Positions 4,113 to 28,444 are shown, counted from the first letter of the stretch. The stretch is 38,693 nucleotides of DNA from Polyangiaceae bacterium (GCA_025934595.1 JAICXU010000001.1:1-38693); one strand, 5' to 3'. The notes: generated from the letters alone by a model not told the origin. Numbers and translations are program-made.

Positions 4113-4180
4113 TTTCGGGCCAAATTTGCGGCCATCGGGGAGCGTTTCGGTGCGCGCCAAAATCCGCTAGCGTCCGCGCC

Positions 4181-4945
4181 ATGCAGAAAGTGTTCAAAAG
4201 CGCGCAAGAGGCGTGCGCGGGTGTTCCCGACGGCTGCACGCTCCTCGCAGGTGGCTTCGGTCTTTGCGGCATTCCCGAAAATTCGATTCGCGCCTTGGCC
4301 GACCTCGGCGTGAAGGGCATCACGGTCGTCTCCAACAATTGCGGCGTCGACGACTTCGGTCTCGGGATCCTTCTTCGCAACAAGCAGATCGTGAAGATGA
4401 TCTCGAGCTACGTCGGCGAGAACAAAGAGTTCGAGCGGCAATATTTGTCCGGCGAGCTCGAAGTGGAGCTCTGTCCGCAAGGCACGCTCGCCGAGCGCAT
4501 TCGCGCGGGCGGCGCAGGAATTCCGGCCTTTTATACGCCCACCGGCGCGGGCACCGCGATCAGCGACGGCGGGCTGCCGTTGAAATATGCGAGCGACGGC
4601 AGCGTCGCGAAGTCGTCACCGAAGAAAGAGCAGCGCGAGTTCCACGGCCGCACGTACGTGCTCGAGCCCGCGATCACGGGTGACTTCGCCATCGTCAAAG
4701 CGTGGAAAGGCGATCGCTACGGCAACCTCGTCTACCGGCACACGGCCATGAACTTCAATCCCATGATGGCAATGGCCGCGAAGACGACGATCGCGGAGGT
4801 CGAGGTGCTCGTCGAGCCCGGCGAGCTCGATCCCGATCACATCCACACGCCGGGAATTTTCGTGCAGCGAATCTACAAGGGCGAAAATTTCGAAAAGCGC
4901 ATCGAGCGACGCACGGTGACGCAAGCTGTAGGAGGTGCGAAATGA
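4181..4945 (+). CDS. scoA: 3-oxoacid CoA-transferase subunit A
   Basis: 254-aa ORF. The N-terminus ...[20 protein letters not shown]...VVSNNCG... is typical of CoA-transferase family I alpha subunits. ATGA overlap with the B subunit. Confidence 0.9.
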
Positions 4946-8598: not shown

Positions 8599-9401
8599 GG
8601 ACCGAAAGCCAAGCCGACGTGAGGCAAAAACAAAACTTGTGGGCCTGACGCCATCGCGTAGGCCGGGGTCGCGATGGGAGCGACTTGCCCATTTCCGGCG
8701 AGCTGCCTGCCGTCGTCGGCGGCGGAACGCGTGCCCGTTCCCGCGTTCTCGATCCAAATCCCGAGACCGAATGCGAACGCGAGGGTGGGTGTCGTTCGAT
8801 ATTGGAGGCTTGCGTCGAGGCTGAGCGCCGGCGAGAAATAGTGCGTTCCGGTCGGGAAATAAGGGCGATCCTCGAGACCCGAAGTGCTCGTCGCTTCCCG
8901 CTCGAGCGCCATGTAGCGATACGCGAGGCCGATGCCCGCGGCGACGCTCTCGCGCCATCGTTTGCCGTCGATCGTGTACCTGCCGCGCGCTGCGAGCATG
9001 CCGCCGCTTCGCAAGATGATGAACGTCTCTTCGCGCGGCGGATTCGCGAGGAGCGGATTGCCGAAGGGCTGGTGCGTGACACCGTCGTACTGCGCGGAGG
9101 GCAATTGAAAATCTCCGAGCGCGCCGATCATGAGCTCGACGCCGTAACGCCCGCGCATCGTGCCGACGTGGCCCATGAAGCCGCCGCCGATCGGTTGCGC
9201 ACGCGAGCAATCCGCCGCGCCGAGATCCTGACAGCTGGTTTGCAGCTCGTTGCCGGCGCCGAACGGCTCGAGCATGCCGGTGAAATCGAGCTCCCCATAA
9301 ATTCCCTGCGAGGGCCGCGACCATGAGTCATCGTCTGCGCGAGCGTCGAACGAAAGCCAGGGCACGCCCACGAGGACGAGCGCGAAGAGCCGTCGTCGCA
9401 T
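8595..9401 (-). CDS. Secreted protein, probable small outer-membrane beta-barrel; function unknown
   Basis: 268-aa ORF. Signal peptide MRRRLFALVLVGVPWLSFDARA. Alternating hydrophobic beta-strand patterns (AAGIGLAYRY, TLAFAFGLGIWIE, VLFLPHVGLAF). Its stop overlaps the convergent gene's stop (TTAA at 8595-8598). Confidence 0.5.
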   Translation of the reverse strand: MRRRLFALVLVGVPWLSFDARADDDSWSRPSQGIYGELDFTGMLEPFGAGNELQTSCQDLGAADCSRAQPIGGGFMGHVGTMRGRYGVELMIGALGDFQLPSAQYDGVTHQPFGNPLLANPPREETFIILRSGGMLAARGRYTIDGKRWRESVAAGIGLAYRYMALEREATSTSGLEDRPYFPTGTHYFSPALSLDASLQYRTTPTLAFAFGLGIWIENAGTGTRSAADDGRQLAGNGQVAPIATPAYAMASGPQVLFLPHVGLAFGP

Positions 9402-9410
9402 ACGAGCGAT

Positions 9411-10937
9411 CTATTTGCCGCGCTCGGCAGCGGCAGTGACAGCGCCGCTCGAAGAATCCGGCCAGCGGGCCTGCTGCTGCTCGGATTTCGGAACCGGCGG
9501 GATCGCTTTCCACGCATCCCAGTACGAGCAGCCCGGATTCCACATCAGCCAACCGACGCCGCCGCCTTTGTCCGCCTCTCTCGTTTCTTGCGCGAGGTAC
9601 TTCGGACCGTACTCGGGCGAGCGCCACATGAACGCTTGTAGCCATGGCCGGATGATCACGTCCTTGTCGCCGGCCTTTTCGAGTCGATGAATCCCCGATC
9701 TCGTTCCGATCGCGATGATCTCGGGATGATTGCCGGGCTCGTCGAATCCCAAAAATCCCTTGTCGTAGTGCGACGGGTACACCATCGGCGAGAGCGCCTC
9801 GCATTCCTTACCGAGCTGTCCGATATCTTGTCCGAGGTTGTGCGTGTCGACGATGGTGCCCGTGGTCGTGACGCCGAAGATGTCGAGCGAGAGCGGCACG
9901 TGGTGCGCGTTGCTGATCTCGTGCGCCTTGTGCACGAACGCAGTCAGCACCTTCTCGCGAGACCCGTCGGCCGGAGGCAAAACGGCGTTTCCGAGGCCTT
10001 TTTGTACGGGAAAACGCACGTAATCGAGCTGAATCTCGTCGGCCCCGAGCGCGATCTCCTCCTCCTCTAGATCGAGGACGTATTGCTGCGCGTCGGGGTT
10101 CGCCGGATCGAGCCAGTCGATCGGATACGCTTTTCCGAACTTGCTCTGGATGGAGAGCTTCGGCGTCTTCACGCTCGTCCACGGATCGTGGAAGCACGAG
10201 ATGCGCATGATGACGTACACGCCATATTTGTGCGCGAAGCGGATCGTGCGCGCGAGATCCGCGATGGGCGGATGTGCGGCAGCGCCGTTGTCGATCGCGA
10301 TCTGCACCTTGGTCGGATACGTGATCGGGCCCATGTAGTCTTTGCCGTCGAGAACGATCGCATTGATGTTGCGCGCCTGCATGCGCTCGAGCGTCTGCTG
10401 CAAGGGATGCACGGCGTAGATGCCCCCCAAATAAATTCCACGGAGCGCTTTGTCGGCGGGCCATGACCACCGCTCTTCATCGGGCGATTTGTAGGCTTCG
10501 GTAATGAGATGCGGGATTTTGATCTTCTTCCCCGGGAAGACGGCGCCCTGCTTCGAGAGCTCCATCATGAGGTCGTCCCACAAGTAGATGTCGGTGAGGT
10601 CGAGGTACTCCTTCGCAATCGCTTGGATGGATTCTTTTGCCTGCACCGTGTGCGTCACGGTGACCTTGCCGTTTTCCTCGACCGCGACTCCGCCTTTCGG
10701 CAGCTTCGCTTTCACCCAGTCGATGAATGCGACCTTCGGCGCGGTCGGTTGCGCGGGCGCGCTCGAATCGGCCGGTGCCGCGAGCGCGGATGCGGTGTCG
10801 GTCGATGCCGACGGGACGGCGGGTCCGACATCGTGGACGACAGGCGACTCCGCATCGCCCGGACGACTGCTCGCCCGATCTCCCGCGCACGAGGACGTGA
10901 ACAAACCGACGAGCACGAGAGCCGACAAGCGCTTCAT
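9411..10937 (-). CDS. Lipoprotein with LysM-like segment and putative glycoside-hydrolase-like TIM-barrel domain (GHL10/DUF4015-type)
   Basis: 508-aa ORF. Lipobox LFTSSC. The LysM-like stretch is HTVQAKESIQAIAKEY...PGKKIKIP. Motifs NAIVLDGKDY, YVIMRISCFHD and EIQLDYVRFP are as I recall for the DUF4015 putative hydrolase family. Confidence 0.6.
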   Translation of the reverse strand: MKRLSALVLVGLFTSSCAGDRASSRPGDAESPVVHDVGPAVPSASTDTASALAAPADSSAPAQPTAPKVAFIDWVKAKLPKGGVAVEENGKVTVTHTVQAKESIQAIAKEYLDLTDIYLWDDLMMELSKQGAVFPGKKIKIPHLITEAYKSPDEERWSWPADKALRGIYLGGIYAVHPLQQTLERMQARNINAIVLDGKDYMGPITYPTKVQIAIDNGAAAHPPIADLARTIRFAHKYGVYVIMRISCFHDPWTSVKTPKLSIQSKFGKAYPIDWLDPANPDAQQYVLDLEEEEIALGADEIQLDYVRFPVQKGLGNAVLPPADGSREKVLTAFVHKAHEISNAHHVPLSLDIFGVTTTGTIVDTHNLGQDIGQLGKECEALSPMVYPSHYDKGFLGFDEPGNHPEIIAIGTRSGIHRLEKAGDKDVIIRPWLQAFMWRSPEYGPKYLAQETREADKGGGVGWLMWNPGCSYWDAWKAIPPVPKSEQQQARWPDSSSGAVTAAAERGK

Positions 10938-16266: not shown

Positions 16267-17013
16267 TCAGAAGCTGAGGCCGCCGTCGACGTCCATCGTC
16301 CGGGCGTTGAAGTAGTCGCACTCGATCGTGAACTTCACCGCGCGCCAGATGTCGTCGGGCTCGCCGATGCGCCCGCTCGGGATCATCGCGACCACCGCAT
16401 CGCGCGCTTTTTGATTCATGCCGCGTGTCATCGGCGTCTCGATCATGCCGGGCGCGATCGCCGTGCAGCGAATTCCGAATTGTGCCCATTCGCGCGCCCA
16501 CGTGAGCGTGTTCGCGGCGAGCGCGGCTTTCGCGGCCACGTAGTTCGATTGCCCGCGATTGCCGTGCCGCGAGATCGACGAGATGTTGACGACGACGCCG
16601 GGCCTCACGTTTTTCTCGGCCATGTAGGCGACGACCTCTTGCGCCATGAACGTGGCACCCGAGAGATTCACGTCCAGCACGACCTTCCAGTCTTGCTTCG
16701 ACAATTTTTTGATCGCGCCGGTCTCGCGATCTTTTTTCACGAGCAGGCCGTCGCGAAGGATGCCCGCGCAATTCACGAGCGCGTTCAATCCACCCATTTT
16801 TTCCGCCGCCCATGCGACGAACGCCTCGCAATGGTGCGGGTCGGACACGTCGAGCTTGCGCTGATGAATGCTCTGCGGCAGCTCCGACAAAAGCGATTCG
16901 TTGATGTCGCCGGCGGCGACTTGCGCGCCTTCGGCGGCGAGCTGACGCGCGAAATGGGCGCCCATGCCCGAAGCCGCGCCGGTGACGATGACTTTCAATT
17001 CGGAAAGCTTCAC
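16267..17013 (-). CDS. Short-chain dehydrogenase/reductase, 3-hydroxyacyl-CoA dehydrogenase / acetoacetyl-CoA reductase-like (PhaB-like role inferred from context)
   Basis: GTG 17013 is preceded by GGAG and overlaps the phaC stop (GTGA). TGAASGMG Rossmann motif, NISS...YVAAK catalytic motif. The upstream 145 codons of the tracked ORF overlap phaC out of frame. Confidence 0.8.
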   Translation of the reverse strand: MKLSELKVIVTGAASGMGAHFARQLAAEGAQVAAGDINESLLSELPQSIHQRKLDVSDPHHCEAFVAWAAEKMGGLNALVNCAGILRDGLLVKKDRETGAIKKLSKQDWKVVLDVNLSGATFMAQEVVAYMAEKNVRPGVVVNISSISRHGNRGQSNYVAAKAALAANTLTWAREWAQFGIRCTAIAPGMIETPMTRGMNQKARDAVVAMIPSGRIGEPDDIWRAVKFTIECDYFNARTMDVDGGLSF

Positions 17014-18050
17014 GAGAGATCTCCTGAGTGGATGAATGATTGCGCCGGCGCGTCGGCGTGCTCTTCGAGCCACGCGGCAACGGCGGGATACAAAACCTTC
17101 GATGCTTTCGATCCCACGACCGCGCCGACGTCGCCGCCGGACACGCGGAGCACGTCCTTCACGCTGGCGCCCGAAAAATCTCCGAGCGCGGTCGCGGCGT
17201 CGGGCGGACAAATCGCATCGCGGTCGGCCACGATGGACATCACGGGAGCCTTGATTTTCCCTAGATCCACGCGTTTTCCGGCCACGCGATGCTCGCCGCG
17301 AACGAGCGCGTTCGATTGATAGAGGTCTCGGATGTACGTGGCGTACGCGGCGCCGGGAAACGGCACGTTGTCCTGCGACCAAGCCTCGAGCGCGTCGAAC
17401 GCTTCGCGCGCCTTCGGATCGTGCATGCGAAGGGCGATGCCGATCCACTTCGCGATCGGGAGCGTCGGCCGCATCGCGGAAAATCCGCTTTGCATTTGCC
17501 AGGCAGGCAGATTTCCTGCGTCGGCGATCGCCTGCGCATCGAAGTGCTTCGGATCGACGAGCTCACCGAGCAGACCCGCCTTCGAAAAGTCGATGGGCCC
17601 GAGCAAGTTGACGAGCGCCGCGATCTCGCCGGGATGGAGCGCAGCGTGAATGGCGGCGAGCGTGCCGCCCATGCAGTAGCCGAGGAGCGCGTATTTCTGC
17701 GCGCCCGAATCTCTCCGCACGGCGCGCGCCGCATGACGAAGGCGCGCGAGCACGTCGTCCCAGGAAAAGTAACGGTCCTCGTCCTCGGCGATACCCCAAT
17801 CGAGCAGATACACCGAGCGCTGCGGACGCGCGCGTACGAGCGACTCCACGAGGCTCGCGCCGGGCCTGAGATCGAGCACGAACCACCGGTTGATCATCGA
17901 TGGCACGAGGAAGAGCGGCGTCGCGTTCGAACGAAGCGGCACACCTGCCGCGTCCTGAGGCTGTGCGCCGCGGAATCGGTAGAGCGTGGCCGTGCCGATC
18001 TTCAGGATCGCGTCTTTGGGCGTCGCCGCGACGGTGACCGCGCTCGTCAT
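17010..18050 (-). CDS. phaC: Class III/IV-type PHA synthase catalytic subunit PhaC (copy 1), with Asp in place of the conserved catalytic His
   Basis: ATG 18050 lies 2 nt after the upstream gene's stop. Lipase-box-like GYCMGG (Cys nucleophile), ADRDAICPP (Asp). The expected GGH(I/V)G reads SGGDVGAVVG (codon GAC). 346 aa, typical of class III/IV size. Confidence 0.85.
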   Translation of the reverse strand: MTSAVTVAATPKDAILKIGTATLYRFRGAQPQDAAGVPLRSNATPLFLVPSMINRWFVLDLRPGASLVESLVRARPQRSVYLLDWGIAEDEDRYFSWDDVLARLRHAARAVRRDSGAQKYALLGYCMGGTLAAIHAALHPGEIAALVNLLGPIDFSKAGLLGELVDPKHFDAQAIADAGNLPAWQMQSGFSAMRPTLPIAKWIGIALRMHDPKAREAFDALEAWSQDNVPFPGAAYATYIRDLYQSNALVRGEHRVAGKRVDLGKIKAPVMSIVADRDAICPPDAATALGDFSGASVKDVLRVSGGDVGAVVGSKASKVLYPAVAAWLEEHADAPAQSFIHSGDLS

Positions 18051-18052
18051 CG

Positions 18053-18322
18053 TCAGCCCCCGACCGTGAACATCTCCGACGAGCGCTTGACGGCCTCGAG
18101 CGAGAGCCGGCGCCACTCGGCGTTCAGCGCCGATGCGTACGCGAACGACTCTTTCGTGAGCTTCGCGAGCTCGTCGACCACCTGCGTCGCCTGCTCGTTC
18201 CGCTTCGTCTCCATCTTTGCGAGCTCGTCGTAGAAAGCCGTGGTGCGCGAGACCGCGTCTTCCATCGATTTCTTCCAAAACGCCTGGAATTGCTGCAACT
18301 GCACATTTTCTTTGTCGGCCAT
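18053..18322 (-). CDS. Small coiled-coil PHA granule-associated protein (phasin / PhaE-like)
   Basis: ATG 18322 is preceded by GGAGGA. The 89-aa helical product MADKENVQLQQFQAFWKKSMED... sits between phaR and phaC. The WKKS[MF] motif is shared with the small protein at 24816. Confidence 0.6.
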   Translation of the reverse strand: MADKENVQLQQFQAFWKKSMEDAVSRTTAFYDELAKMETKRNEQATQVVDELAKLTKESFAYASALNAEWRRLSLEAVKRSSEMFTVGG

Positions 18323-18363
18323 GATGTCCTCCGTTCGCCGCACATTCCTGCGGAACGCGCGGG

Positions 18364-18401: not shown

Positions 18402-18416
18402 TGTTGCAGTGCAACA
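18402..18416 (-). promoter_or_regulatory. Putative PhaR operator: perfect 7-1-7 palindrome TGTTGCA-G-TGCAACA (core TGC-N3-GCA) upstream of phasin-phaC-SDR
   Basis: Read directly from the sequence. It sits in an AT-rich patch 9 nt upstream of the -35 element below. The TGC-N3-GCA core matches my recollection of alphaproteobacterial PhaR boxes. Confidence 0.55.
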
Positions 18417-18420
18417 AAAT

Positions 18421-18969
18421 CTATTTTCGACGCGCGCGTACGGTCTTCTTCAGCTTTTCGAGCTCGCGGCGAAGCTCGGCGACTTGATCCGCAGACGAAG
18501 CCGTCGAGACTGGCGGCGGCGGCGGCATCGGCGCGGCTTGCGGCGGCGGCCCCGGCTCCTGCGCTTGCGCCCATGGGTTCGATCCCATCATCATGCGAGC
18601 CAGCGCGTTGCCCGCGGAGAACGGCGCGGTCGCGAGCGGAACGTACGGCGAGAGCGCCTGCGCTTGCGAGCGCGCGCGCATGTAGATCTCGAGCGCCCAG
18701 GACATGTATCGGCCAAAAAACTCGGCCAATGCTTCGTTTTCGAGGCGGATCAACTGCGTCAGAAACGGCACCGGCAAGAGCCGCGCGCCGCCCCGGCTCT
18801 CGAGGATGATCTGCGTGAGTGTCGCCGCTGTCAGATCTTCGTCGGTCTTCGCGTCGACCACCGTGACATCGGCGCCGACTTTGATCTTGTGAGCGAGCTC
18901 GTCGAGCGTGATGTACTTGCTGTCGACGGTGTCGTAGAGGCGGCGGTTCGAATATTTTTTGACGATCAT
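18421..18969 (-). CDS. phaR: Polyhydroxyalkanoate synthesis repressor PhaR
   Basis: MIVKKYSNRRLYDTVDSKYITLDEL...VVDAKTDEDLT...LTQIILE matches the conserved PhaR N-terminal DNA-binding domain. Confidence 0.9.
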   Translation of the reverse strand: MIVKKYSNRRLYDTVDSKYITLDELAHKIKVGADVTVVDAKTDEDLTAATLTQIILESRGGARLLPVPFLTQLIRLENEALAEFFGRYMSWALEIYMRARSQAQALSPYVPLATAPFSAGNALARMMMGSNPWAQAQEPGPPPQAAPMPPPPPVSTASSADQVAELRRELEKLKKTVRARRK

Positions 18970-19050: not shown

Positions 19051-19065
19051 TTGTGCATTGCAACA
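19051..19065. promoter_or_regulatory. Putative PhaR operator 2 (TTGTGCA-T-TGCAACA; 12/15 identical to site 1) in the phaR / MFS divergent region
   Basis: TGCATTGCA is a 4-1-4 palindrome. The right half, TGCAACA, is identical to site 1. It is flanked by a GTGCATT direct repeat (19043-19049 and 19053-19059). Confidence 0.45.
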
Positions 19066-19069
19066 TTTT

Positions 19070-19102
19070 TGGCTTGACGATTGCGGTCGCCGGCCGTATT
19101 TC
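19070..19102 (+). promoter_or_regulatory. Candidate promoter for the 19164-28444 gene block: sigma54-like TGGC-N7-TTGC (19070-19084), overlapping a sigma70-like TTGACG-17 nt-TATTTC (19074-19102)
   Basis: TGGCTTGACGATTGC has GG and GC at the -24/-12 spacing. Alternatively TTGACG, then 17 nt, then TATTTC. The two readings are mutually exclusive and neither is verified. Confidence 0.3.
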
Positions 19103-19117: not shown

Positions 19118-19132
19118 TGTTGCAGCGCACTA
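19118..19132. promoter_or_regulatory. Putative PhaR operator 3 (TGTTGCA-G-CGCACTA; left half identical to site 1), 32 nt upstream of the MFS start codon
   Basis: Contains TGCAGCGCA (TGC-N3-GCA). 12/15 identical to site 1. Confidence 0.35.
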
Positions 19133-19163: not shown

Positions 19164-20381
19164 ATGAATGCTCGCCCGCGTACGACCCTCGGCCTTTCCG
19201 CGCTCCTCCAAGCCGTCGGCGGCGGCCTCGGCTGGTCGCTGGTTCCTGCCGTGATGCCCGACATCGCAAAGGATCTGACGTTCGGGCACGCGAGCGCAGG
19301 TGCGGTCTTCGGCGCCGCGTCTCTCGGCATCGCGCTCGCCTCGCCCTTCGGAGGCAGCGCGGTCGATCGCTTCGGCGCGCGTCGCACGGCCGGATTCGCG
19401 ATGCTGTTCGGGGCGGTGACGTGCGGTTTGAGGGCGTTTGCGCATACGCCGGCCATTCTCGCGGCGTGCATGTTTCTCTTCGGGCTGCACATCGGATTCG
19501 TGGCGCCGGCCCTTCCCAAGGCTCTCTCTGCGCACGTGCCGCCGGCTCGCTTCGCGCGAGCGAACGGTCTCACCGTGCTCGCGTACACGTTCGGCACGGC
19601 GATCACGATGGTGACGGCGCGCACGTGGCTCTTGCCGTATCTCGGTGGTTGGCGACACGCGATGCTGTTTGCGGCCGGGGCAATGGCGCTCGCAGGCGTG
19701 GCGTGGCTCGTCTGCATTCGTGACGGATTTATTGCGACGCACCATGCGACCTTGCGATCGTCGTTCGCGCTTCTCGGAAATGGCGCCGTTCGGCGCGTCG
19801 CCGCCGCGCACTTTCTGCTCTTCGGGGGCTACCTCGCGCTCCTCTCGTCGCTCCCGCATCTGTTGATCGAAGCCGGCGTAGACAAGACGAAGGTCGGCAT
19901 TTCGATCGCGGCGTGGCTCGCAACGGCCGGTCTCGCGAATTTCGTGGGACCGTCATTTTCCGACCGCATGGAACGTCGCAAGCCCGTGATTTTAGGAGGA
20001 GCAGCGTTGGCGGGCCTCGCCCTGACCGCCGTCGCGTTCGCTCCGGCAGCACAAAAGCCCTTGTTTTTGGCGGTCGCGGCGATCGGTGGCGGCGCATTCG
20101 CTCCTCTTCTTTTGACGATCCCGTTTGAGCTGCCGGGCGTTGGCTTGGCGCGAGGCGGAGCGGCGCTCGGTCTCTTGATGATGCTCGGCCAGGTCGGTGG
20201 GTTCTTGCTCCCCGTCTTGGTTGGTGGAACATCTGAGGCCGCCGGTTTTCGGGCGGCGATCCTGACCCTCGCCATGCTCCATGCGTTCATCTTGATCCCC
20301 GCTCTCGGTCTGCCCGAGACGGGCCGTGCGGGCGATCATTCGGGCAGCGCTTGGCAAAAGAACACGGGCGACGTCGCGTGA
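19164..20381 (+). CDS. MFS transporter
   Basis: 405 aa, about 12 hydrophobic segments. MFS motif A-like GGSAVDRFGARRT between TM2 and TM3. Confidence 0.8.
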   Translation: MNARPRTTLGLSALLQAVGGGLGWSLVPAVMPDIAKDLTFGHASAGAVFGAASLGIALASPFGGSAVDRFGARRTAGFAMLFGAVTCGLRAFAHTPAILAACMFLFGLHIGFVAPALPKALSAHVPPARFARANGLTVLAYTFGTAITMVTARTWLLPYLGGWRHAMLFAAGAMALAGVAWLVCIRDGFIATHHATLRSSFALLGNGAVRRVAAAHFLLFGGYLALLSSLPHLLIEAGVDKTKVGISIAAWLATAGLANFVGPSFSDRMERRKPVILGGAALAGLALTAVAFAPAAQKPLFLAVAAIGGGAFAPLLLTIPFELPGVGLARGGAALGLLMMLGQVGGFLLPVLVGGTSEAAGFRAAILTLAMLHAFILIPALGLPETGRAGDHSGSAWQKNTGDVA

Positions 20382-20386
20382 AGATC

Positions 20387-21346
20387 ATGAAACGCGCGCG
20401 ATCGATTTGGCTTCTCGCGACATTCGGCGTCGCGATCGGCGCGCTCCTCGCGTGCTCGAGTGGATCGGATCGTCAGTGCACGGTCGGCGCGGACTGCGCG
20501 AGCGGCGCATGCAACGCCGACGGCACGTGCGTCGCGGTGGCGAGCGGCAGCACCGACGGCGGCACGAGCCTCGGTGACGGAGGATCCACCACCGGATCCG
20601 ACGGCAGCACGTTTCCGATCGACGCGTCGCCTCTCGCATGTGCGACGGACGGCGGCGCGCTCGGCCACGACAACGTCCCGATCGCAGCGGGTCTCACCGC
20701 GACCTTCGAGGTCGCGACGAACGAGACGGTAGATACGGCCGGCACCGACAACGGCGATGGCTCCAAAACATGGGATTTTACCGTATCGTTCGCGTCGGAC
20801 CAAAGCGTGATCGTGCAAACGCTCTCGCCGTCCGGCGCATGGTGGGCTCCCGACTTCACGACCGCCACGTACGCGTCGAAGCTCGTGCAAGCACAGAGCA
20901 CGCTCGGTGTCTTCGACTACGGCGCGAATTCGCTCGATCTCGTCGGCGTCGTTTCACCGACGAGCGACGGCGTCACCGAGACCGAGCTCACCTACGCGAC
21001 GCCGATCCCCATCCTCGCGTTCCCGCTCCACATGGCGCAGACGTGGTCGACGACGTCGAACGTCAGCGGCAAGTTGAACGGCGTCACGGCGCTCTACTCC
21101 GAGACCTACGACTCGAAGGTCGACGCGTACGGCACGGTGAAGACGCCCTATGGAAATTTTGCTGCACTGCGAGTAGGAACGTTGCTGACGCAAAATGCAG
21201 GCGCCGTCACGAAGACGCGCACCTACGCGTGGGTCACCGCGTGCTTCGGCACGATCGCGAAGGCCACGTCGACGTCGATGACGAACACGGGCACACCCGG
21301 CGAGAACTTCACGCAGACCGCGGAGCTCATGAGGCTTGCCCCGTGA
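20387..21346 (+). CDS. Lipoprotein A of an envelope module (paralog of 23918..24784), function unknown
   Basis: ATG 20387 gives MKRARSIWLLATFGVAIGALLAC (lipobox). Cys-rich CTVGADCASGACNADGTC, Gly/Ser/Thr linker. The conserved core shares WDF[TS]V, TYDxKVDAxGT, ALRVxT, CFGxxAxATS and F-T-x-[TA]-A-E-[LV]-x-R-L motifs with the downstream paralog. Confidence 0.7.
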   Translation: MKRARSIWLLATFGVAIGALLACSSGSDRQCTVGADCASGACNADGTCVAVASGSTDGGTSLGDGGSTTGSDGSTFPIDASPLACATDGGALGHDNVPIAAGLTATFEVATNETVDTAGTDNGDGSKTWDFTVSFASDQSVIVQTLSPSGAWWAPDFTTATYASKLVQAQSTLGVFDYGANSLDLVGVVSPTSDGVTETELTYATPIPILAFPLHMAQTWSTTSNVSGKLNGVTALYSETYDSKVDAYGTVKTPYGNFAALRVGTLLTQNAGAVTKTRTYAWVTACFGTIAKATSTSMTNTGTPGENFTQTAELMRLAP

Positions 21347-22323
21347 ATGCGGTACGCGAGCTGCTCTTTCGCCTAGGTCTGGGTCTAGGCCTCGGTCTTC
21401 TTCTCTGTCTCGAAGCAGGGTGCATGACTTTCCATCAAGGTCCGATGCCGGGCGAGCCGAAAACTGCGTCGTTCGCGAACGTCGAAGGCGTGCGCGTTCG
21501 CTACGTCGACACGGGCGGTGACAAGCCGGCCGTCGTTCTCATTCATGGATTCGCGTCGTCGCTCGATGCATGGGCCACCGTCATCCCCGAGCTCGCGAAG
21601 ACCCACCGCGTGCTCGCCCTCGATCTCAAAGGGTTCGGTTGGACCGATCGACCCGAGGGTGACTATTCGCCCGACGCCGAAGCGCAGCTCGTGCTGGCGC
21701 TCATGTCGCAGCGCAACATTCCACGCGCGGATCTCGTCGGGCATTCCTGGGGCGCGTCGGTGGCGCTCGCGGCGGCGATGCGCGCGCCCGATCGCGTGAA
21801 GCGTCTCGCGCTCTATGACGCGTGGGTCTACGAAGGCCAGCTTCCGGCGACGTTTCACTGGTCGCGCACGGGCGGCGTCGGCGAGATGCTGTTCGGTCTG
21901 TATTACAAGCAGCGCGCCGACGAGAAGATGGCGATGGCCTTCTACGATCAGAGGTACGTGACCGAGGAGCTCGTCGACGCGGTGGAAGAAGCGCTCGACA
22001 GGCCAGGCACCGTGGCGGCGGCGCTCGCGGCGGTGCGCGGACAGCGCTTCGCGGGCGTCGAGGCGAATTACCGTAAAATTCAGCAGAAAACGTTGCTTCT
22101 GTGGGGACGCGAGGATGCCGTCGCCACGCTCGATTTCGGCGAGCGGCTCGCGCGCGATCTGCCGAACGCACACCTCGTGGTGTATCCGCGCTGCGGACAT
22201 TTTCCGATGATCGAGGCGCGCGCGGAGTCGAATCGCGACCTCGTCGCCTTCTTGAGCGACGCGCCCGAGCCGACGACGACTAGCGAGAAACCCGCGCCTG
22301 GATCGAGCGAGGCCACGCCGTGA
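21343..22323 (+). CDS. Secreted alpha/beta-fold hydrolase (esterase/lipase-like), possible lipoprotein
   Basis: GTG 21343 overlaps the upstream stop (GTGA). (LG)4-containing signal peptide ending LEAGC. HGFASS oxyanion region, nucleophile elbow GHSWG, C-terminal CGHFPMIE His motif. Confidence 0.8.
   Translation: MNAVRELLFRLGLGLGLGLLLCLEAGCMTFHQGPMPGEPKTASFANVEGVRVRYVDTGGDKPAVVLIHGFASSLDAWATVIPELAKTHRVLALDLKGFGWTDRPEGDYSPDAEAQLVLALMSQRNIPRADLVGHSWGASVALAAAMRAPDRVKRLALYDAWVYEGQLPATFHWSRTGGVGEMLFGLYYKQRADEKMAMAFYDQRYVTEELVDAVEEALDRPGTVAAALAAVRGQRFAGVEANYRKIQQKTLLLWGREDAVATLDFGERLARDLPNAHLVVYPRCGHFPMIEARAESNRDLVAFLSDAPEPTTTSEKPAPGSSEATP
21373..21396 (+). repeat. Degenerate hexamer repeat CTAGGT CTGGGT CTAGGC CTCGGT, encoding (Leu-Gly)4 in the hydrolase signal peptide
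   Basis: Read directly. It shares the ttcgcCTAGGTCT lead-in with the 23951 repeat. Confidence 0.85.
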
Positions 22324-23915
22324 GAGGGTCGGCGCCGTTCGCTCATGCTCTCGCGCTCGGCGTGTTCGCGCTCGTGCTTGCGCAATCGAAGCGCGCGCGC
22401 GCGACGGGCTTCAGCGACCTCGGCGAGGACATCGTGCAGCGCGACAAAGTCGCGGTCACCGTCGACGGTTACTTGCGCACGCGCGGCACGGCCTACGGCA
22501 ACCTCGATCTCGATCGCGGCCCCACGCCTTCCGGGCAGCTCCTCTTTCCGGTCTCGCAGGCCGACCCGAAAGCGCAGTGGCTGACGAATTGGGACATGCG
22601 CCTTCGCACCGACATCGCGATCTATGCGCCCGGGCAAACCCTCGCCGTGAAGGTCCGCATGGACGCGCTCGACAATCTCGTTCTCGGGAGCTTGCCGAAC
22701 GGCGCGCCGTCCGCGACCACGTCACAAAACGCTCCAAATCAAGCGCTTTCGTTGAAACGCGCCTACGGCGAGGCGCTCCTTCCATTCGGTCTCCTCGCCG
22801 CAGGTCGCATGGGATCGCATTGGGGCCTCGGCATTCTCACGAACGGCGGCGACTGCCTCGATTGCGACAGCGGCGACGCGGCCGATCGCATCGCGCTCGT
22901 GACGCCGCTCGCGGATCACATCTTCGCGCTCGCCTACGATTTCTCCGCGATCGGTCCGCTGCAAGGAACGACGACGCAGCCGAATCACGTCGTCGACGTC
23001 GAGCCATCGGTGGACGTGCACACGCTCACGTTTGCTGCGATGCACTATAAAAACGATGCATCGCGAGAGCGGCGTCGACGTGCCGGTCGCACGACGGTGG
23101 AATATGGCGCGTACTTTTCGCATCGTTGGCAGAACGACGACATCCCTGCTTCGTATCTCCCCGTCGCGACGCCGGTCGCGGTCACGCCGGCGGAGGTGAT
23201 GCATCGCGGATATCAAGCGAACGCCGCCGACGCATGGGGACGCCTCACCTTCCCGGTCGCGCGCGTCGAGTTCGAGATCGCGTATTTGCAAGCATCGGTC
23301 GATCAAGCGTCGCTCCTGCCGGGCGCGCTCCTCCGCGATCCGGTGACGAGCCATCAGCTCGGCGCGGCGCTCGAGAGCGATGTCGGCGCGCCGGCGGATC
23401 GATTCGGGTTCGGGCTCGATATGGGTTACGCGAGCGGCGACCCGGCGCCGGGGTTCGGCGTGAATACGCCGGCAAACGCGCAGCAGCCGAAGCCGGGCGA
23501 CCTCGACGGGCCGCAAGCTTCGCCGCCGAACGACACGCGCGTCGACAACTTCCGCTTTCATCCGGACTACCGCATCGATCAAATTCTCTTTCGCGAGATC
23601 ATTGGCACCGTGACCGACGCCGCCTACGTTCGTCCGCACGTGCGCGCGCGCGTCGCGCAATGGACGAGCGCGCAAATCACGACGAGCCTCGCGGGCATCG
23701 CATCGACGGCAGCGAATGCGTCCTCGACGCCCGGAGGAGCGGCGCCGCTCGGCGTGGAGCTCGATCCGCAAATCGCCTATTCGGGCAGAGAAGGCCTCTT
23801 CGTCGCGCTCGAAGGCGGATGGCTTTTGCCGCTCGCCGGTCTCGACAATCCGCAACTTCACATGGACGCAAAAATGGTAGGCCTCGTGCGCCTGCGAATC
23901 GCGTTTCTGTTCTGA
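22320..23915 (+). CDS. Outer-membrane beta-barrel protein (porin/channel-like), function unknown
   Basis: GTG 22320 overlaps the upstream stop (GTGA). Signal peptide ALALGVFALVLAQS. Many amphipathic beta-strand segments. C-terminal ...LRIAFLF ends in Phe as in OM barrels. Confidence 0.65.
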   Translation: MRGSAPFAHALALGVFALVLAQSKRARATGFSDLGEDIVQRDKVAVTVDGYLRTRGTAYGNLDLDRGPTPSGQLLFPVSQADPKAQWLTNWDMRLRTDIAIYAPGQTLAVKVRMDALDNLVLGSLPNGAPSATTSQNAPNQALSLKRAYGEALLPFGLLAAGRMGSHWGLGILTNGGDCLDCDSGDAADRIALVTPLADHIFALAYDFSAIGPLQGTTTQPNHVVDVEPSVDVHTLTFAAMHYKNDASRERRRRAGRTTVEYGAYFSHRWQNDDIPASYLPVATPVAVTPAEVMHRGYQANAADAWGRLTFPVARVEFEIAYLQASVDQASLLPGALLRDPVTSHQLGAALESDVGAPADRFGFGLDMGYASGDPAPGFGVNTPANAQQPKPGDLDGPQASPPNDTRVDNFRFHPDYRIDQILFREIIGTVTDAAYVRPHVRARVAQWTSAQITTSLAGIASTAANASSTPGGAAPLGVELDPQIAYSGREGLFVALEGGWLLPLAGLDNPQLHMDAKMVGLVRLRIAFLF

Positions 23916-23917
23916 TC

Positions 23918-24784
23918 ATGATCACCAAGCGCACACAAACCCGTCTTCGCCTAGGTCTAGGTCTAGGTCTAGGTCTGAGTCTTCTCGCCTGCGGCGAGAA
24001 CCAAACCCACCCTGTTCGTGACGACTACGACGCCGGCGTCCCTGCTCCTCTCGCATGCGTCCCGAATCTCGATGGCAAGATCGACGCGAACGAAATTCAG
24101 CCTGCGATCGGAATCCCGCTTTCCTACTTGGTGTCGCCGGCGGGCGTCACGCGTGACGTGAACGTCGCGGGCACCGTCGACTCCGATGGCCATACGGTGT
24201 GGGATTTTTCGGTGGACTACGCGAACGACGAAGTCGCGCGGATCCAAGCGCAAAATCTCGCCGGAAAGTGGTACGCGTCGTCGTTTCCCGCGAGCGGATT
24301 CGTCGTCGCGCAAGACGCGGGTGACCGGCTCGAAGGCGTCATTCTCTTCGACGCGAGCGGATATCGGCTCGCCGGGCTCGCGTCGACCGACGAGAACCCG
24401 CCCGAGGGAAAGACGCTTTATGTGTATGATACACCTGTCGATCTGTTTCGATTTCCGATGACGCCCGGAGTCTCGTTCACGTCGACAGGAAACGTGCAGA
24501 ATGCAACTTTGCGCGGGCTGCCGTACGCCGGAAAGGACACGTACGACGTGAAGGTCGACGCGGCCGGCACGTTGATCTTGCCGTCGGTCACGTTCACGCA
24601 AGCGCTTCGCGTGCGCACGACGCTTACGGCGACGCCCGCGGCGGGACAACCGGCAACGACGCGCCAAGTTTCATTTCTCTTCGAATGCTTCGGTGAGGTG
24701 GCGCGTGCCACGAGCCAGACGAACGAGACGCAAGACGATTTCACGACGGCGGCCGAAGTTCGCCGCCTCGGACTTTTGCCATGA
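23918..24784 (+). CDS. Lipoprotein B of the envelope module (paralog of 20387..21346), function unknown
   Basis: ATG 23918 lies 2 nt after the barrel gene's stop. MITKRTQTRLRLGLGLGLGLSLLAC lipobox. Core collinear with lipoprotein A (see that entry). Confidence 0.7.
   Translation: MITKRTQTRLRLGLGLGLGLSLLACGENQTHPVRDDYDAGVPAPLACVPNLDGKIDANEIQPAIGIPLSYLVSPAGVTRDVNVAGTVDSDGHTVWDFSVDYANDEVARIQAQNLAGKWYASSFPASGFVVAQDAGDRLEGVILFDASGYRLAGLASTDENPPEGKTLYVYDTPVDLFRFPMTPGVSFTSTGNVQNATLRGLPYAGKDTYDVKVDAAGTLILPSVTFTQALRVRTTLTATPAAGQPATTRQVSFLFECFGEVARATSQTNETQDDFTTAAEVRRLGLLP
23951..23980 (+). repeat. Tandem hexamer (CTAGGT)x4 plus a degenerate fifth unit CTGAGT, encoding (Leu-Gly)n in the lipoprotein B signal peptide
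   Basis: Read directly: ctaggtctaggtctaggtctaggtctgagt. Confidence 0.9.
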
Positions 24785-24815: not shown

Positions 24816-25103
24816 ATGATGACGTGGGACAGCTGGAAAAAAAGCTTCGACGTGTGGGAGAACGAGACCGCGAAATTTCTCGAGACGTGGGTGAAGAGCC
24901 CGCTCGTGCTCGGCCCGAGCGGCATGATGCTCACGCAGGCGATGAAGGCGAAGGCGCAATACGACAAAGCCCTCGCGCAATTTTGGGGCAGCGTCGGCTT
25001 GCCCACCAAGCGCGATCAAGAGCGCACGCTCCATCTCTTGAACAAGCTCGAATCGCGTCTGCTCGATCTCGAGGAGCAGCTGGAAGAGCAGCAGAAGGCC
25101 TAG
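24816..25103 (+). CDS. Small PHA synthase accessory subunit, PhaR(class IV)/PhaE C-terminal-like
   Basis: GGAG, then 7 nt, then ATG. The 95-aa product has [18 protein letters not shown] and [31 protein letters not shown]. This resembles the ...NVPTKEDIANV...LEEKVDRIEE region of Bacillus PhaR / PhaE as I recall it. Confidence 0.6.
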
Positions 25104-25122
25104 CCCTCGACCTCGACCTAGG
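25104..25122 (-). repeat. Inverted, degenerate copy of the same hexamer family (minus strand CCTAGGT CGAGGT CGAGGG) in the gap between the PhaR/E-like gene and the acyl-CoA synthetase gene
   Basis: Plus strand reads ccctcgacctcgacctagg, directly after the TAG stop at 25101-25103. Confidence 0.6.
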
Positions 25123-25141
25123 CAAAGACGGAGAACCCATC

Positions 25142-26920
25142 ATGGACATCACGCCCTACCTCGACATGAAGCCCGCGCCTCGCGCCGTGTTCGATTCGCT
25201 CTCGACCCGCGCGCACCTTCCGCGATTTTACGTACCGACGCCGGACGGCGGATATTCGCTCGTCACGTGGCAGGCGTTCGCGGACGAGATCCGCGACGTC
25301 GCGCTCTTCTTGCAGCCAATCCTCGGGAAAGAAGATCGCGCATGCGTGCTCGCGCCGAACTCGGTGGCCTGGGCCAGCGCGGCGCTCGCGATTCAAGCCG
25401 CGGCCGGCGTCATGGTGCCGATCTACCCGGCGTCGACGGCGGCGCAGATTGGTTATGTTGCAGCGCACAGTGACGCGAAGGTGGTCTTCGTCGACACGGC
25501 CGCTCTTCTGTCGCGCCTCTTCGACTGTTGGAGCGAGCTCGCGCACGTCGAGAAGATCGTGCTCCTGTCCGCTGCGGTGGACGCGCGAAAGACATTCGAC
25601 GACTGGCGCACGAAGACGAGCTCGAGCCAAAAAGAAGCTATTTCATCGGCGGACATCGCTGCTCGTGTCGTGTCGTGGCGCGAAGCGAAGGCGGCCGGGC
25701 GCGCCGCCCACGAGAAGAATTCGAGCGCGTTCGACGCGATGCTCTCGTCGGTGTCGCTCGATCAGCTCGGCATGATGCTCTACACGAGCGGCACGTCGGG
25801 CAATCCGAAGGGCGTTCCTTTGTCGCACCGCAACGTAGCGGTGAACGGGCAAGATTGGCTCGTCTGCAACGGACCGCAGCTCGGGGAAAACAACGTCGAC
25901 ATCCTGTGGCTTCCCATGAGCCACATCTTCGGCTTCGGGGAGATGTGCCTCGGCAACACGCTCGGGTTCACCACGTACCTCTCGGATCCGGCGACCTGCC
26001 TCACGAAGATGCCGGCGCTGAGACCGACGGTGTTCATGAGCGTGCCTTCGCATTGGGAGAAGCTCGCGCAAATGAGCATGCACGAGCCGACGCAAGAAGG
26101 TCGCGTGAAAAAATTCGTCGAGACGACGGGCGGCCGGCTTCGGTTTTGTTTGTCGGGTGGCGCGGGCCTCAAACGCGAGGTGAAGGATTTCTTCTACGCG
26201 TGCGGCGTACTCATCATCGAGGGCTATGGTCTCACCGAGACGTCGCCCACGCTCACCCTCAATCGCCCCGACGCATTTCGTTTCGATTCGGTCGGCAAGC
26301 CCTTGCCGAGCGTGGAGCTCAAGCTCGCCGAAGACGGGGAAATTCTCGCGCGCGGAGCGAGTGTGTTTCGCGGCTACCACAAGGACGAACCGGCGACGCG
26401 CGAAGCGTTCACCGCCGACGGCTGGTTCCAAACCGGCGACGTCGGCCGCTTCACCGACGACGGCTTTCTCCAGATCATCGATCGCAAGAAGGACATCTTG
26501 GTGACGGCCGGCGGCAAGAACGTGCCTCCTGCCAACATCGAGGTTCGCTTCGGGGGCGATCCGCTCCTCGCCCATGTCGTCGTCTACGGCGACGCGAAGA
26601 AGTTCCTCGTCGCGGGCGTGTGGCTGAACGAAGCGGTCGTGCGCGCCGAGCTCGAGTCGAAAGGCACGACGCCCGATCACATGAGCGCCGCGCGACGGGA
26701 GATCGTCGCCCAACGGATCGAGCGCGTGAACCAAGGGCTCGCGAGCTACGAGTCAATCAAGAAGTTCGCGATCATGAGCGAGCCGCTCACCGTCGAAGGC
26801 GGCCTTCTCACCGCGTCGTTCAAGGTGCGCCGCAAGAAGGTCTACGAGGCGTTCAAGCCGGCGTTCGAAGCGATGTACGCCGAAAATGATGCTCCGCGTC
26901 CCGCAGTGCAACATGCCTGA
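25142..26920 (+). CDS. AMP-forming long-chain acyl-CoA synthetase (FadD/FAA1-type)
   Basis: ATG 25142 follows GGAG. AMP-binding motif [12 protein letters not shown]; GYGLTETS; WFQTGDVG...DRKKD; C-terminal K in FKVRRKKV. The tracked start at 24824 overlaps the preceding gene out of frame. Confidence 0.85.
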
Positions 26921-27986
26921 GCAAGCGTTCTCGCGAATCAAAAATCTTTTGGGGCTTGCCGCTCGCAAGCGCCCGGAGGTCGGAGTCACGCCCGCGGACG
27001 TGGTCCATCGCGAGAACAAATGGTCTCTGCTTCATTATCGACGCGCGACGCCGGCGCGTTACAAAACACCTATTTTGTTCGTGCCGTCGCTCATCAATCG
27101 GCACTACGTGATGGATCTCGTGCCGGGCAAGAGCATGGCGGAGTGGCTCCTCGCGCAAGGCCACGACGTGTACTGCATCGACTGGGGCACTCCCGGCGAC
27201 GAGGATCGGTACCTGAGCTTCGACTCTATCTGCGACAAATATCTCGGTCGCGCGCTTCGCATTGCAGCAAAGAGCTCGCCGCGCGGCCAGGCCCATGTGC
27301 TCGGCTATTGCCTCGGCGGCACGCTGGCCGTCATCCACGCCGCTGCGCACCAAGAGAAAATCGCCTCGATGGCCCTTCTCGCGGCGCCCGTGAGCTTCAA
27401 AGACGAGGGGCCTCTCGCGGCGTGGACCCAATCGCCCGACTTCGATCCGGAGGCGATCACGCGTGCATGGGGAAATGCGCCGTGGCCGCTGCTTCAAAGT
27501 GCATTCCACATGCTGCGGCCGACGTTGAATCTCGCAAAGGCCATGCACCTCGTCGATCGCGCGTGGAACGACGAGTTCCTCGACGGCTTTCTCGCCGTGG
27601 AGACGTGGGGCAACGACAACGTGTCGTTCCCCGGCGCGGCGTTCGTTCGCTACATCGAGGATTTGTATCGAAAGGACGCGCTCGTGAACGGCGACATGAC
27701 GCTGTCCGGAAAGCCCGCGAAGCTGGAGTCGATCGCGTGTCCGCTCCTCGCGGTCACGTTCGAGCACGACAACATCGTGCCGTGGAGGAGCGCGGCGCTC
27801 GTCGTCGATCGCGTCGCATCGACCGACAAAACGCACGTGAAGCTCCCGGGCGGTCACGTCGGCGCGGTCGTGTCCAAGTCGGCGTCGAAAGGGCTCTGGC
27901 CCATGCTGTCGAAGTTCTTCGTCGATCACGAAGCGAGAGGCGTGAAGACGCGCGGCGCGCGGTCGGCTAACGTCGCTCGTCGATGA
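26913..27986 (+). CDS. phaC: Class III/IV-type PHA synthase catalytic subunit PhaC (copy 2), full Cys-Asp-His set present
   Basis: GYCLGG (Cys), FEHDNIVPW (Asp), [10 protein letters not shown] (His). Collinear with copy 1. Start is ATG 26913 (8-nt overlap with the ligase) or ATG 26886. Confidence 0.85.
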
Positions 27987-28444
27987 CGATTTACATCTTC
28001 GGCTTCCTCATCGGATTCGTGGCCGGCCTGCGATCGATGACGCCGCTGGCGGCCGTGAGCATCGGCGCGTTCATCGGCCATCTCAAGGTCGACAAGTCCG
28101 CGGTCGCGTTTCTCGCCGAATCGCCGGCTCCTTACATTCTGAGCGCGCTCGCGCTCGTCGAGCTGGTGTTCGACAAGCTGCCGGTCACGCCGAGCCGGAA
28201 AGCGATCGGGCCATTTTTAGCGCGAATCGTGACAGGCGGTCTATCCGGCGCGGCCCTCGGCGCGGCGGGCGACGCTCTCCTCGGATGCGCGTTCGTCGCC
28301 GCTGCCGGCGCGGCGTTCGGCACGCTCGTCGGAGGCTCGGCACGCGCGAGCCTCGCGGCAGGGTTCCGAAAAGATTTTCCCGCTGCGCTCATCGAAGATG
28401 CGTTCGCGATCGGCGGCGCGGCGATGCTCGTCGCGCTGGCGTAG
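27983..28444 (+). CDS. DUF4126-like integral membrane protein
   Basis: ATG 27983 overlaps the phaC2 stop (ATGA). 153 aa, 4 hydrophobic helices. ELVFDKLPVTPSR resembles the DUF4126 signature as I recall it. Confidence 0.6.
   Translation: MTIYIFGFLIGFVAGLRSMTPLAAVSIGAFIGHLKVDKSAVAFLAESPAPYILSALALVELVFDKLPVTPSRKAIGPFLARIVTGGLSGAALGAAGDALLGCAFVAAAGAAFGTLVGGSARASLAAGFRKDFPAALIEDAFAIGGAAMLVALA

Follow-up and report, generated by a model that had tools for sequence, protein, structure and literature searches.

A lipoprotein, hydrolase, and beta-barrel gene unit within a conserved polyhydroxyalkanoate operon of Myxococcota and its possible role in carboxylate uptake

We analyzed a stretch of 38,693 nucleotides (nt) from a Polyangiaceae bacterium (GCA_025934595.1 JAICXU010000001.1:1-38693; the whole stretch is hereafter called the window), which contains a four-gene unit at 20387-24784. 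The unit encodes two lipoproteins (A and B), an alpha/beta hydrolase (H), and an outer-membrane beta-barrel protein (Bar). An earlier note on this DNA had described the four genes as an envelope module of its own. Comparison with related genomes revealed that the four genes do form a unit but not a free-standing one: as judged from the gene order, A-H-Bar-B makes up the 5' half of a conserved larger operon, divergent from phaR-p96-phaC1-phaB, that also encodes enzymes of polyhydroxyalkanoate (PHA) metabolism. PHA genes are present in most of the Myxococcota genomes examined in a survey (PMC11821767). PHA metabolism is described as cytoplasmic, its components being the synthase, phasins, the depolymerase, and PhaR, and the literature searched contained no PHA system or operon with dedicated outer-membrane components.

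The four-gene unit and its conserved surroundings

The genes for A, H, Bar, and B are encoded on one strand in this order (Table 1). At each of the junctions A/H and H/Bar the start and stop codons overlap in GTGA. From Bar to B there is a gap of 2 nt (TGA-TC-ATG). Translation of the four genes is coupled. The coupling described in the earlier note, with GTGA twice and a single 2-nt gap, was thereby reproduced, as was its barrel protein of 531 residues ending in AFLF.

The two lipoproteins flanking H and Bar, encoded at 20387-21346 and 23918-24784, had been called clearly homologous. BLASTP with compositional adjustment aligned residues 81-317 of A with residues 43-284 of B at 80 identities in 247 positions (32%, E=1e-30), which bears this out. 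All seven motifs that had been listed were collinear in this alignment (PLAC, AGT..D..G..WDF, Y.TP..L.FP, TYD.KVDA.GT, ALRV.T, CFG..A.ATS, and FT..AE..RL), and the similarity was not due to low complexity. The N-terminal regions differ as had been noticed: the Cys-rich unit (CTVGADCASGACNADGTC) and the Gly/Ser/Thr linker are specific to A, recur in the A orthologues, and are absent from B. To these sequences we added the A- and B-position genes of 67 related loci, giving 68 genomes together with the window pair. The mean identity was 48% among A proteins and 56% among B proteins but 31% between A and B, with a maximum of 37%, and the mean identity between A and B from the same genome was also 31%. 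The A type and the B type are separate orthologous groups. Since the identity between A and B is far below those within each type, the duplication is old. By these comparisons the paralogy of A and B is real and ancient, and it has persisted without upkeep by gene conversion.

Relatives of B were sought in one genome per species and were found in 287 species genomes, whose organism-level names were Myxococcota or unclassified delta-/Proteobacteria. Eighty loci were retrieved for the comparison of gene order, which turned out to be almost invariant: PhaB-PhaC1-p96-PhaR on one side and, divergently, a transporter gene of the major facilitator superfamily (MFS) or the SSF symporter family, where present, followed by A-H-Bar-B-p95-acyl-CoA synthetase-PhaC2 on the other. 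A, H, Bar, and B were all present in 64 of the 64 loci with at least 4 kb of DNA upstream of B, so that the four genes co-occur elsewhere, as expected of the unit described earlier. Among the 70 loci with enough DNA downstream, p95 followed B in 67 and the acyl-CoA synthetase gene was present in 66. The order was kept though the B proteins of these loci are only 51-68% identical to that of the window. The complete cluster is also found in a cultured isolate, Labilithrix luteola DSM 27648 (locus L023; NZ_CP012333.1, about 1.851-1.868 Mb).

The first gene of the operon is variable. An MFS gene precedes A in the window and in 8 of the 80 loci, an SSF symporter gene is found instead in L020 and L081-L083, and the protein P0359 is an apparent MFS-A fusion. 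The exceptional loci keep the link to PHA. In L018 a gene for a PhaZ-like depolymerase (DUF3141/PHB_depo_C) lies directly before A, and the distant loci L081-L083, in which the SSF symporter gene precedes A, are rearranged but contain the same gene set. A third B-like paralogue is located directly before the p101 and acyl-CoA synthetase genes in rearranged loci (in L081 at 8738-9700, encoding 320 residues, and also in L082). A scan for terminators and promoters from A to PhaC2 gave no convincing terminator, and its in-gene matches were of weak consensus.

Table 1. Genes and PhaR-type operators in and around the four-gene unit (positions in the window)
Feature	Position	Strand	Remarks
phaB-like short-chain dehydrogenase (FabG/acetoacetyl-CoA reductase type)	16267-17016	-	adh_short_C2, E=3.5e-48; last gene of the divergent operon
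PhaC1, class III-like PHA synthase	17010-18080	-	TIGR01836, 228 bits (cutoff 365.3); 38% identical to PhaC2
p96, small helical protein upstream of phaC1	18053-18343	-	no significant family match; position conserved in loci
PhaR-type palindrome TGTTGCAGTGCAACA	18402-18416		perfect copy; sigma-70-like -35 hexamer for p96 at a distance of 9 nt
phaR, PHA-responsive repressor	18421-18969	-	PHB_acc_N, E=2.7e-25; TIGR01848, 98 bits (cutoff 109); divergent from the envelope operon
PhaR-type box TTGTGCATTGCAACA	19051-19065		8 nt upstream of a TTGACG -35-like hexamer (19074-19079)
Second PhaR-type box TGTTGCAGCGCACTA	19118-19132		between the putative -10 and the MFS start codon
MFS transporter	19164-20381	+	MFS_1, E=1.5e-34; stop codon 5 nt before the start of A
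Lipoprotein A	20387-21346	+	319 aa, ATG start; lipobox LLAC, Cys-rich unit, Gly/Ser/Thr linker, all-beta domain of ~240 aa common with B
Hydrolase H	21343-22323	+	326 aa, GTG start; predicted alpha/beta-fold serine hydrolase lipoprotein
Barrel Bar	22320-23915	+	531 aa, GTG start, ends in RIAFLF; type I signal peptide, C-terminal Phe; TIGR04551
Lipoprotein B	23918-24784	+	288 aa, ATG start; lipobox LLAC, then all-beta domain common with A
p95, small protein	24816-25103	+	31 nt after B; weak match to PHA_synth_III_E (C-terminal part of PhaE), E=0.002, below gathering score
AMP-forming acyl-CoA synthetase	25142-26920	+	AMP-binding, E=1.4e-65; FadD11/long-chain type by best NCBIfam matches, all below cutoff
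PhaC2, class III-like PHA synthase	start 26886 or 26913, end 27986	+	TIGR01836, 253 bits (cutoff 365.3)

PhaR-type operators at the divergent promoters

The PhaR operator of Ralstonia eutropha has the palindromic consensus YTKNTGCRNYGCANMAR, and its sites lie directly upstream of the -35 region and around the transcription start of phaP1 (PMC12849132). The palindromes in the window fit this consensus, and their placement mirrors that at phaP1. In the related loci, the palindrome TGTTGC-RNY-GCAACA was found in 59 of 65 spacers adjacent to phaR; it was often paired, in many loci with a distance of about 60-100 bp. When a relaxed pattern was used (TGC[AG]N[CT]GCAACA-type palindromes, with expected counts calculated from base composition), the 1.15 Mb of locus DNA contained 257 occurrences where about 1.7 were expected, an enrichment of more than 100-fold. 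The occurrences were concentrated at two places, with about 97 copies in the spacer between phaR and A or the MFS gene and about 82 upstream of p96, and boxes of the same class were found 67 times between p96 and phaR. The window contains seven matches against 1.1 expected, three of which are located at two promoters. The boxes at 19051-19065 and 19118-19132 bracket the MFS-A promoter, whose hexamers were read by eye and which is hence putative.

We infer that PhaR controls the envelope operon as part of its regulon. The arrangement resembles the PhaR regulon of R. eutropha (phaP1, phaP3, phaR) in combining a PhaR homologue with similarly placed operators that fit the consensus, whereas the targets described there are phasin genes (PMC12849132) and the predicted operon of the window starts with outer-membrane and lipoprotein genes.

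In about 16 of 71 loci (L007, L008, L010, L011, L013, L014, L017, L032-L034, L039, L042, L055, L057, L058, and L072), PhaR-type boxes were also observed within H or at its 3' end and between H and Bar. The H gene of the window contains a box with one mismatch at 21704-21718, and in some loci the start of the A or Bar coding sequence overlaps a box (for example, the codons for MLRRNI and VRCN). The boxes in or near H may be internal operators or promoters.

Lipoproteins, hydrolase, and barrel

The signal peptides of A and B end in the lipobox LLAC, followed by Ser in A and Gly in B, and the lipobox Cys was invariant in 32 aligned homologues. A, H, and B are placed among the bacterial lipoproteins, whose signal peptides end in [LVI][ASTVI][GAS]C, and are predicted to be acylated as substrates of Lgt and LspA. 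Neither A nor B matched a Pfam or NCBIfam family, which agrees with the earlier note, where the lipoproteins could not be placed in a named domain; Pfam searches at E<=10 with the single sequences and with 32 homologues scanned individually gave only scattered chance matches. The family comprises 1,095 clusters (50% identity) at E<=1e-3, and its aligned homologues contain two invariant Cys residues. Its multi-domain representatives have tandem A/B copies, Cys-rich DUF7107-like N-termini, or MFS-A read-through, and no enzyme domain that would give a functional clue was found among these fusion proteins.

After the first conserved Cys the family has an EF-hand-like loop, CxPNLDGxIDxxE (residues 47-59 of B, CVPNLDGKIDANE), in which N, D, G, I, and E are nearly invariant. 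The A orthologues carry an equivalent loop, of which the copy in A of the window is degenerate (CATDGGALGHDNV). When the A/B profile was compared with PDB sequences, only marginal matches to EF-hand proteins and lanmodulin were obtained over this loop (E about 0.6). The loop may be a Ca2+ site.

The structural model of B is all-beta with 13 strands and has a mean confidence score (predicted local distance difference test, pLDDT) of 88.8. Foldseek detected no match to this model at E<=1e-3. The best fold neighbours were the YmcC-fold lipoproteins 3fzx, 4fvs, and 2in5, which matched weakly (E=1.3e-2, probability 0.84-0.96, template-modelling (TM) score 0.31-0.44, root-mean-square deviation (rmsd) 8-11 A). 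These fold matches (E about 1e-2, with TM below the 0.5 of a clear match) do not suffice to place B in a YmcC-like family, and Pfam gave no match for A, B, or 30 homologues. The weak neighbours also include the lipid binders LprG and CRABP (E>0.2, TM<0.3).

A hexamer repeat, (CTAGGT)n, which contains the rare codon CTA, encodes (Leu-Gly)n in the signal peptides of H and B (21373-21398 and 23951-23976), and a related copy lies on the minus strand between p95 and the synthetase gene (25105-25124). The 20-nt form of this pattern gave four matches against zero expected, and the orthologous signal peptides are without the repeat.

By its sequence H is a member of the alpha/beta-hydrolase fold serine hydrolases. 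It matched Abhydrolase_1 of Pfam with E=1.3e-31 (110.6 bits; cutoff 25.8), and the HG oxyanion motif (HG68-69), the nucleophile Ser135 in GHSWG, Asp258, and His286 were at least 97% conserved in 71 sequences. The earlier note had called it a secreted alpha/beta hydrolase. The hydrolase assignment stands, but secretion is not the whole description of H: a canonical lipobox, L-x-G-C, is found in the orthologues ahead of a conserved xFHxGxMPGEP, and H is therefore predicted to be the third lipoprotein of the unit. The corresponding residues of H in the window read LEAGC. The nearest PDB sequences were meta-cleavage-product (MCP) hydrolases (E=3.5e-31). The entry 6i8w, named alpha/beta fold hydrolase by its depositors and presumably the phospholipase A PlaF of Pseudomonas aeruginosa, aligned with residues 16-305 of H, including the N-terminal hydrophobic segment (E=1.1e-24). 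H and this protein share the alpha/beta hydrolase fold and an N-terminal hydrophobic anchor region. They differ in the kind of anchor, a transmembrane helix in the inner membrane for PlaF and a conserved lipobox for H, and the similarity is generic to the Abhydrolase_1 superfamily, in which MCP hydrolases score higher.

Bar matched the NCBIfam family TIGR04551 with 327.9 bits (cutoff 300; E=1.3e-97) over positions 2-519 of the 519 of the model. TIGR04551 is a named family whose function is not described; Bar homologues are listed under this name by JGI and NCBI, and the literature searched did not mention it. Comparison with hidden Markov models thus placed A, B, and Bar in no functionally defined family, the only match being that of Bar to this name. 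An AlphaFold model of Bar built from 31 sequences is an 18-stranded barrel without a plug (pLDDT 65.8, with loops of low confidence). Searches with Bar and about 30 homologues gave no Plug, TonB_dep_Rec, OprD, alginate-export, or other Pfam porin match at E<=5-10, and a comparison of Bar with PDB sequences gave chance matches only. It had been stated that the barrel lacks a SusC/TonB-type plug, and the Pfam null result at E<=10 and the model, with 18 rather than 22 strands, agree with this. Two assignments of Bar were rejected: a SusC/TonB-dependent transporter of a Sus-like system (18 strands instead of 22, no plug, no SusD-like partner) and a FadL-type lipid channel (18 strands, charged lining, no hatch). 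The fold neighbours detected by Foldseek were AlgE as the best match (E=2e-9, TM 0.43/0.53), Campylobacter MOMP, and E. coli ChiP (TM 0.43/0.51), which we take to be a member of the OprD family. As modelled, Bar resembles 18-stranded specific porins (AlgE, OprD/Occ-like) rather than Sus-type systems.

Conservation in Bar is concentrated on charged residues and loops. There are 107 invariant positions, 42 of which are charged. Charged residues of the same parity occur on individual strands (R53/R55, D92/R94/R96/D98, R113/D115, R147/E151, E317/E319, and R524/R526), and conserved Arg residues share this parity on strands b1-b5 and b18. The shared parity fits an Arg/Asp lining that would face the lumen. 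With the loops numbered on the assumption of the standard topology of outer-membrane proteins, conservation is higher in L1, L3, and L7 than in the strands, and 37 of the 62 residues of L7 are at least 90% conserved. The predicted L3 (NGGDCLDCDSGD) contains an invariant CxxC within an acidic loop (GGDCLDCDSGDAADR, residues 176-190) that was modelled with pLDDT below 50. At the putative constriction, this CxxC could form a disulfide or bind a metal.

Possible roles of the unit and further features of the window

These features suggest a substrate-specific outer-membrane channel with accessory lipoproteins that has been recruited into the PHA regulon. The earlier note had likened the unit to a surface-exposed substrate-capture system, an idea that is compatible with the present data as an uptake function. 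We tentatively favour the reading that A-H-Bar-B is a cell-envelope, PhaR-controlled uptake arm that feeds carboxylates to the synthetase and the PHA synthase in Myxococcota (Polyangia-type genomes). According to this reading, PhaR would leave its operators when PHA synthesis begins, and the operon would be expressed. The lipid-anchored serine esterase H would then act on an ester in the envelope or on the cell surface and release (hydroxy)carboxylic acids from it; PHA oligomers, acyl esters, and lipids of prey or of the cell itself are candidate substrates. A and B would bind this substrate or attach to Bar at its conserved loops, and Bar would conduct the anionic product through its Arg/Asp-lined pore in the manner of the OprD/Occ carboxylate channels. 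Where present, the MFS or SSF symporter of the inner membrane would carry the product into the cytoplasm. There the synthetase would make the CoA thioester, and PhaC2 with p95 would polymerize it into storage PHA. Import is the suggested direction because MFS and SSF families replace each other at the same position before A and because the next enzyme of the operon activates free acids.

The channel step is modelled on the Occ proteins, in which 18 strands form the barrel, L3 and L7 narrow the pore, and a basic ladder selects for carboxylates, medium-chain fatty acids among them (PMC3260308). Like the OprD/Occ channels of Pseudomonas, Bar is modelled as a plug-less, 18-stranded barrel, presumably of the monomer type; its conserved basic residues lie on neighbouring strands with a parity that would face the lumen, and its L3 and L7 are highly conserved. 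The analogy is one of function and not of membership, which the sequence does not indicate (no Pfam match at E<=10). Furthermore, Bar is about 100 residues longer, with its 62-residue L7, and has conserved acidic residues beside the Arg residues. Genes for two dedicated lipoproteins and a lipoprotein esterase always accompany that of Bar, whereas we know of no Occ channel that is encoded in this way. By this comparison OprD/Occ would be the closest functional analogue of the channel and AlgE its closest structure.

Several points weigh against an uptake function. It is drawn from sequence, and no paper in the literature searched mentions TIGR04551 or the four-gene module. In R. eutropha, phaR itself is also a PhaR target. 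The PhaR boxes of the operon share their spacer with phaR, so that they could serve autoregulation only. AlgE, the top structural match of Bar, is an exporter; Bar lacks an OprD or alginate-export match in Pfam; and its putative constriction and Arg ladder are derived from sequence parity, with L3 and L7 modelled at pLDDT below 50. As far as modelled, the fold of A and B offers no clue to a ligand. The relatives of H are generic (MCP hydrolases, esterases, and haloalkane dehalogenases), and its assignment as a curated PHA depolymerase was rejected, the NCBIfam scores being 78.7 bits for NF050089 (cutoff 300) and 35 bits for TIGR02240 (cutoff 250.6). Finally, the inner-membrane transporter is absent from most loci.

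A more specific form of the uptake function is doubtful. In predatory or saprophytic Myxococcota, the unit might be an outer-membrane salvage system switched by PhaR, in which external esters, possibly PHA of prey or of the environment, are re-polymerized into the cell's own granules by way of a surface or periplasmic lipoprotein esterase, undescribed all-beta lipoproteins, and a new family of 18-stranded carboxylate channels, from which hydroxyalkanoate or other acyl units would go straight to the acyl-CoA synthetase and the PHA synthase. If true, it would provide the first outer-membrane component of any PHA regulon.

The same proteins could be read as a system of envelope lipid turnover, which we regard as unlikely. 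H would then be a PlaF-like, membrane-anchored phospholipase or lipid deacylase, A and B would be lipid carriers working with the barrel, and the freed fatty acids, such as 3-hydroxy acids, would be reactivated by the long-chain-type synthetase and enter PHA, coupling outer-membrane remodelling to carbon storage. The alignment of H with 6i8w through the N-terminal hydrophobic segment points in this direction, as do the long-chain FadD types among the best NCBIfam matches of the synthetase and the PhaB of the window, which is nearer to FabG-type reductases than to PhaB. LprG, CRABP, and YmcC-like lipoproteins are among the fold neighbours of B, but the matches to the lipid binders are very weak, and the similarity of H to 6i8w is no stronger than that to many other alpha/beta hydrolases. 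The conserved lining of Bar is charged (Arg/Asp/Glu) and not hydrophobic, its model has neither a lateral gate nor a FadL-like hatch, and the transporters that recur upstream of A are MFS and SSF symporters of small solutes. Co-expression of the unit with the PHA genes might instead be unrelated to carbon flow, with a general porin and structural lipoproteins serving envelope adaptation under nutrient imbalance, or with the unit acting as a sensor. Only linkage and shared operators have been shown, and none of the four proteins has an assignable substrate, both of which suit such a role. It is nevertheless quite improbable, in view of the very tight gene order, which is kept where B is only 51-68% identical to that of the window, and of the B-type paralogue, which stays with p95 and the acyl-CoA synthetase gene in rearranged loci; the conserved catalytic triad of H and the conserved loops of the barrel also point to a specific activity.

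The structural neighbours of Bar and B would suit a system for polymer export or surface assembly, which we consider very unlikely. In such a system Bar would be an AlgE/Wzp-like secretion porin, A and B would be docked accessories of the GfcB/YmcC type, and H would trim or modify what is exported, a polymer or oligomer such as a polyester or a product derived from PHA. AlgE structures are the best structural matches of Bar (TM about 0.5), both barrels being 18-stranded with a charged lumen, predicted in the case of Bar, and AlgE works with a lipoprotein partner, AlgK. Myxobacteria are known to export polysaccharide by 18-stranded Wzp porins (PMC9603273). The likeness of Bar to AlgE is one of fold only: Pfam gives no alginate-export match for Bar, and its cluster contains no polymer synthase, outer-membrane polysaccharide export (OPX) protein, periplasmic scaffold, or export machinery. 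For the lipoproteins, the closest parallel is the group 4 capsule operon, where a small all-beta lipoprotein of the GfcB/YmcC/YjbF type is likewise encoded beside an outer-membrane barrel, and GfcB together with GfcC binds the barrel GfcD (PMC8592465). YmcC-fold proteins are the best matches of B, but at TM 0.3-0.44, 8-9% identity, and rmsd 8-11 A, with no match to hidden Markov models; B exceeds them in length by about 60-80 residues, the barrel of GfcD is much larger (double or 26-stranded), and equivalents of GfcA, GfcC, GfcE, Etp, and Etk are not present here. Neither is a glycosyltransferase, an OPX/Wza protein, a polysaccharide co-polymerase (PCP), a flippase, an ABC exporter, or a membrane-embedded synthase conserved in the cluster; the genes conserved around the unit encode cytoplasmic PHA enzymes, an acid-activating ligase, and importers. 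PhaC is soluble and cytoplasmic, and to our knowledge there is no route by which its product would reach the periplasm.

The A-H-Bar-B system is real, widespread in a major soil phylum, and present in a cultured strain. At least 64 fully covered loci combine, in one PHA operon preceded by PhaR-type operators, a predicted outer-membrane channel with a predicted lipoprotein esterase and with two lipoproteins whose family is unclassified. If the proposed uptake function is right, the PhaR regulon reaches the cell envelope, and both TIGR04551 and a lipoprotein family of about 1,100 clusters (50% identity) gain a function. It would also suggest how the Myxococcota that are abundant in soil and activated sludge acquire carbon for storage.

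The PHA genes on both sides of the unit show some features of their own. The presumed catalytic His of PhaC1 is replaced by Asp in the window (GGDVGA, near residue 317), whereas 36 of 37 orthologues keep His, 32 of them in exactly GGHVGA. The Asp could reflect a sequencing error or an inactivated paralogue. In PhaC2, the motifs of the Cys-Asp-His triad were conserved in 68 orthologues, and the presumed catalytic His was kept in all copies. The small protein p95 is the probable partner of PhaC2, and a role as phasin or synthase partner is proposed for p96; no similarity between p95 and p96 was detectable. The phaB-like gene is syntenic in most loci, and its best NCBIfam matches were 3-ketoacyl reductases, all below cutoff. 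Rfam and tRNA scans of the whole window found nothing. About 15 kb upstream of the unit lies a gene of the CoA-transferase family (4052-4945, plus strand; CoA_trans, E=3e-76), which may be relevant to the metabolism of ketone bodies or 3-hydroxybutyrate. At the other end, a gene for a DUF4126 membrane protein (27983-28444, plus strand) overlaps the stop codon of phaC2 (ATGA). Because no such gene follows phaC2 in any of the 80 loci, it looks like a lineage-specific addition to the operon.

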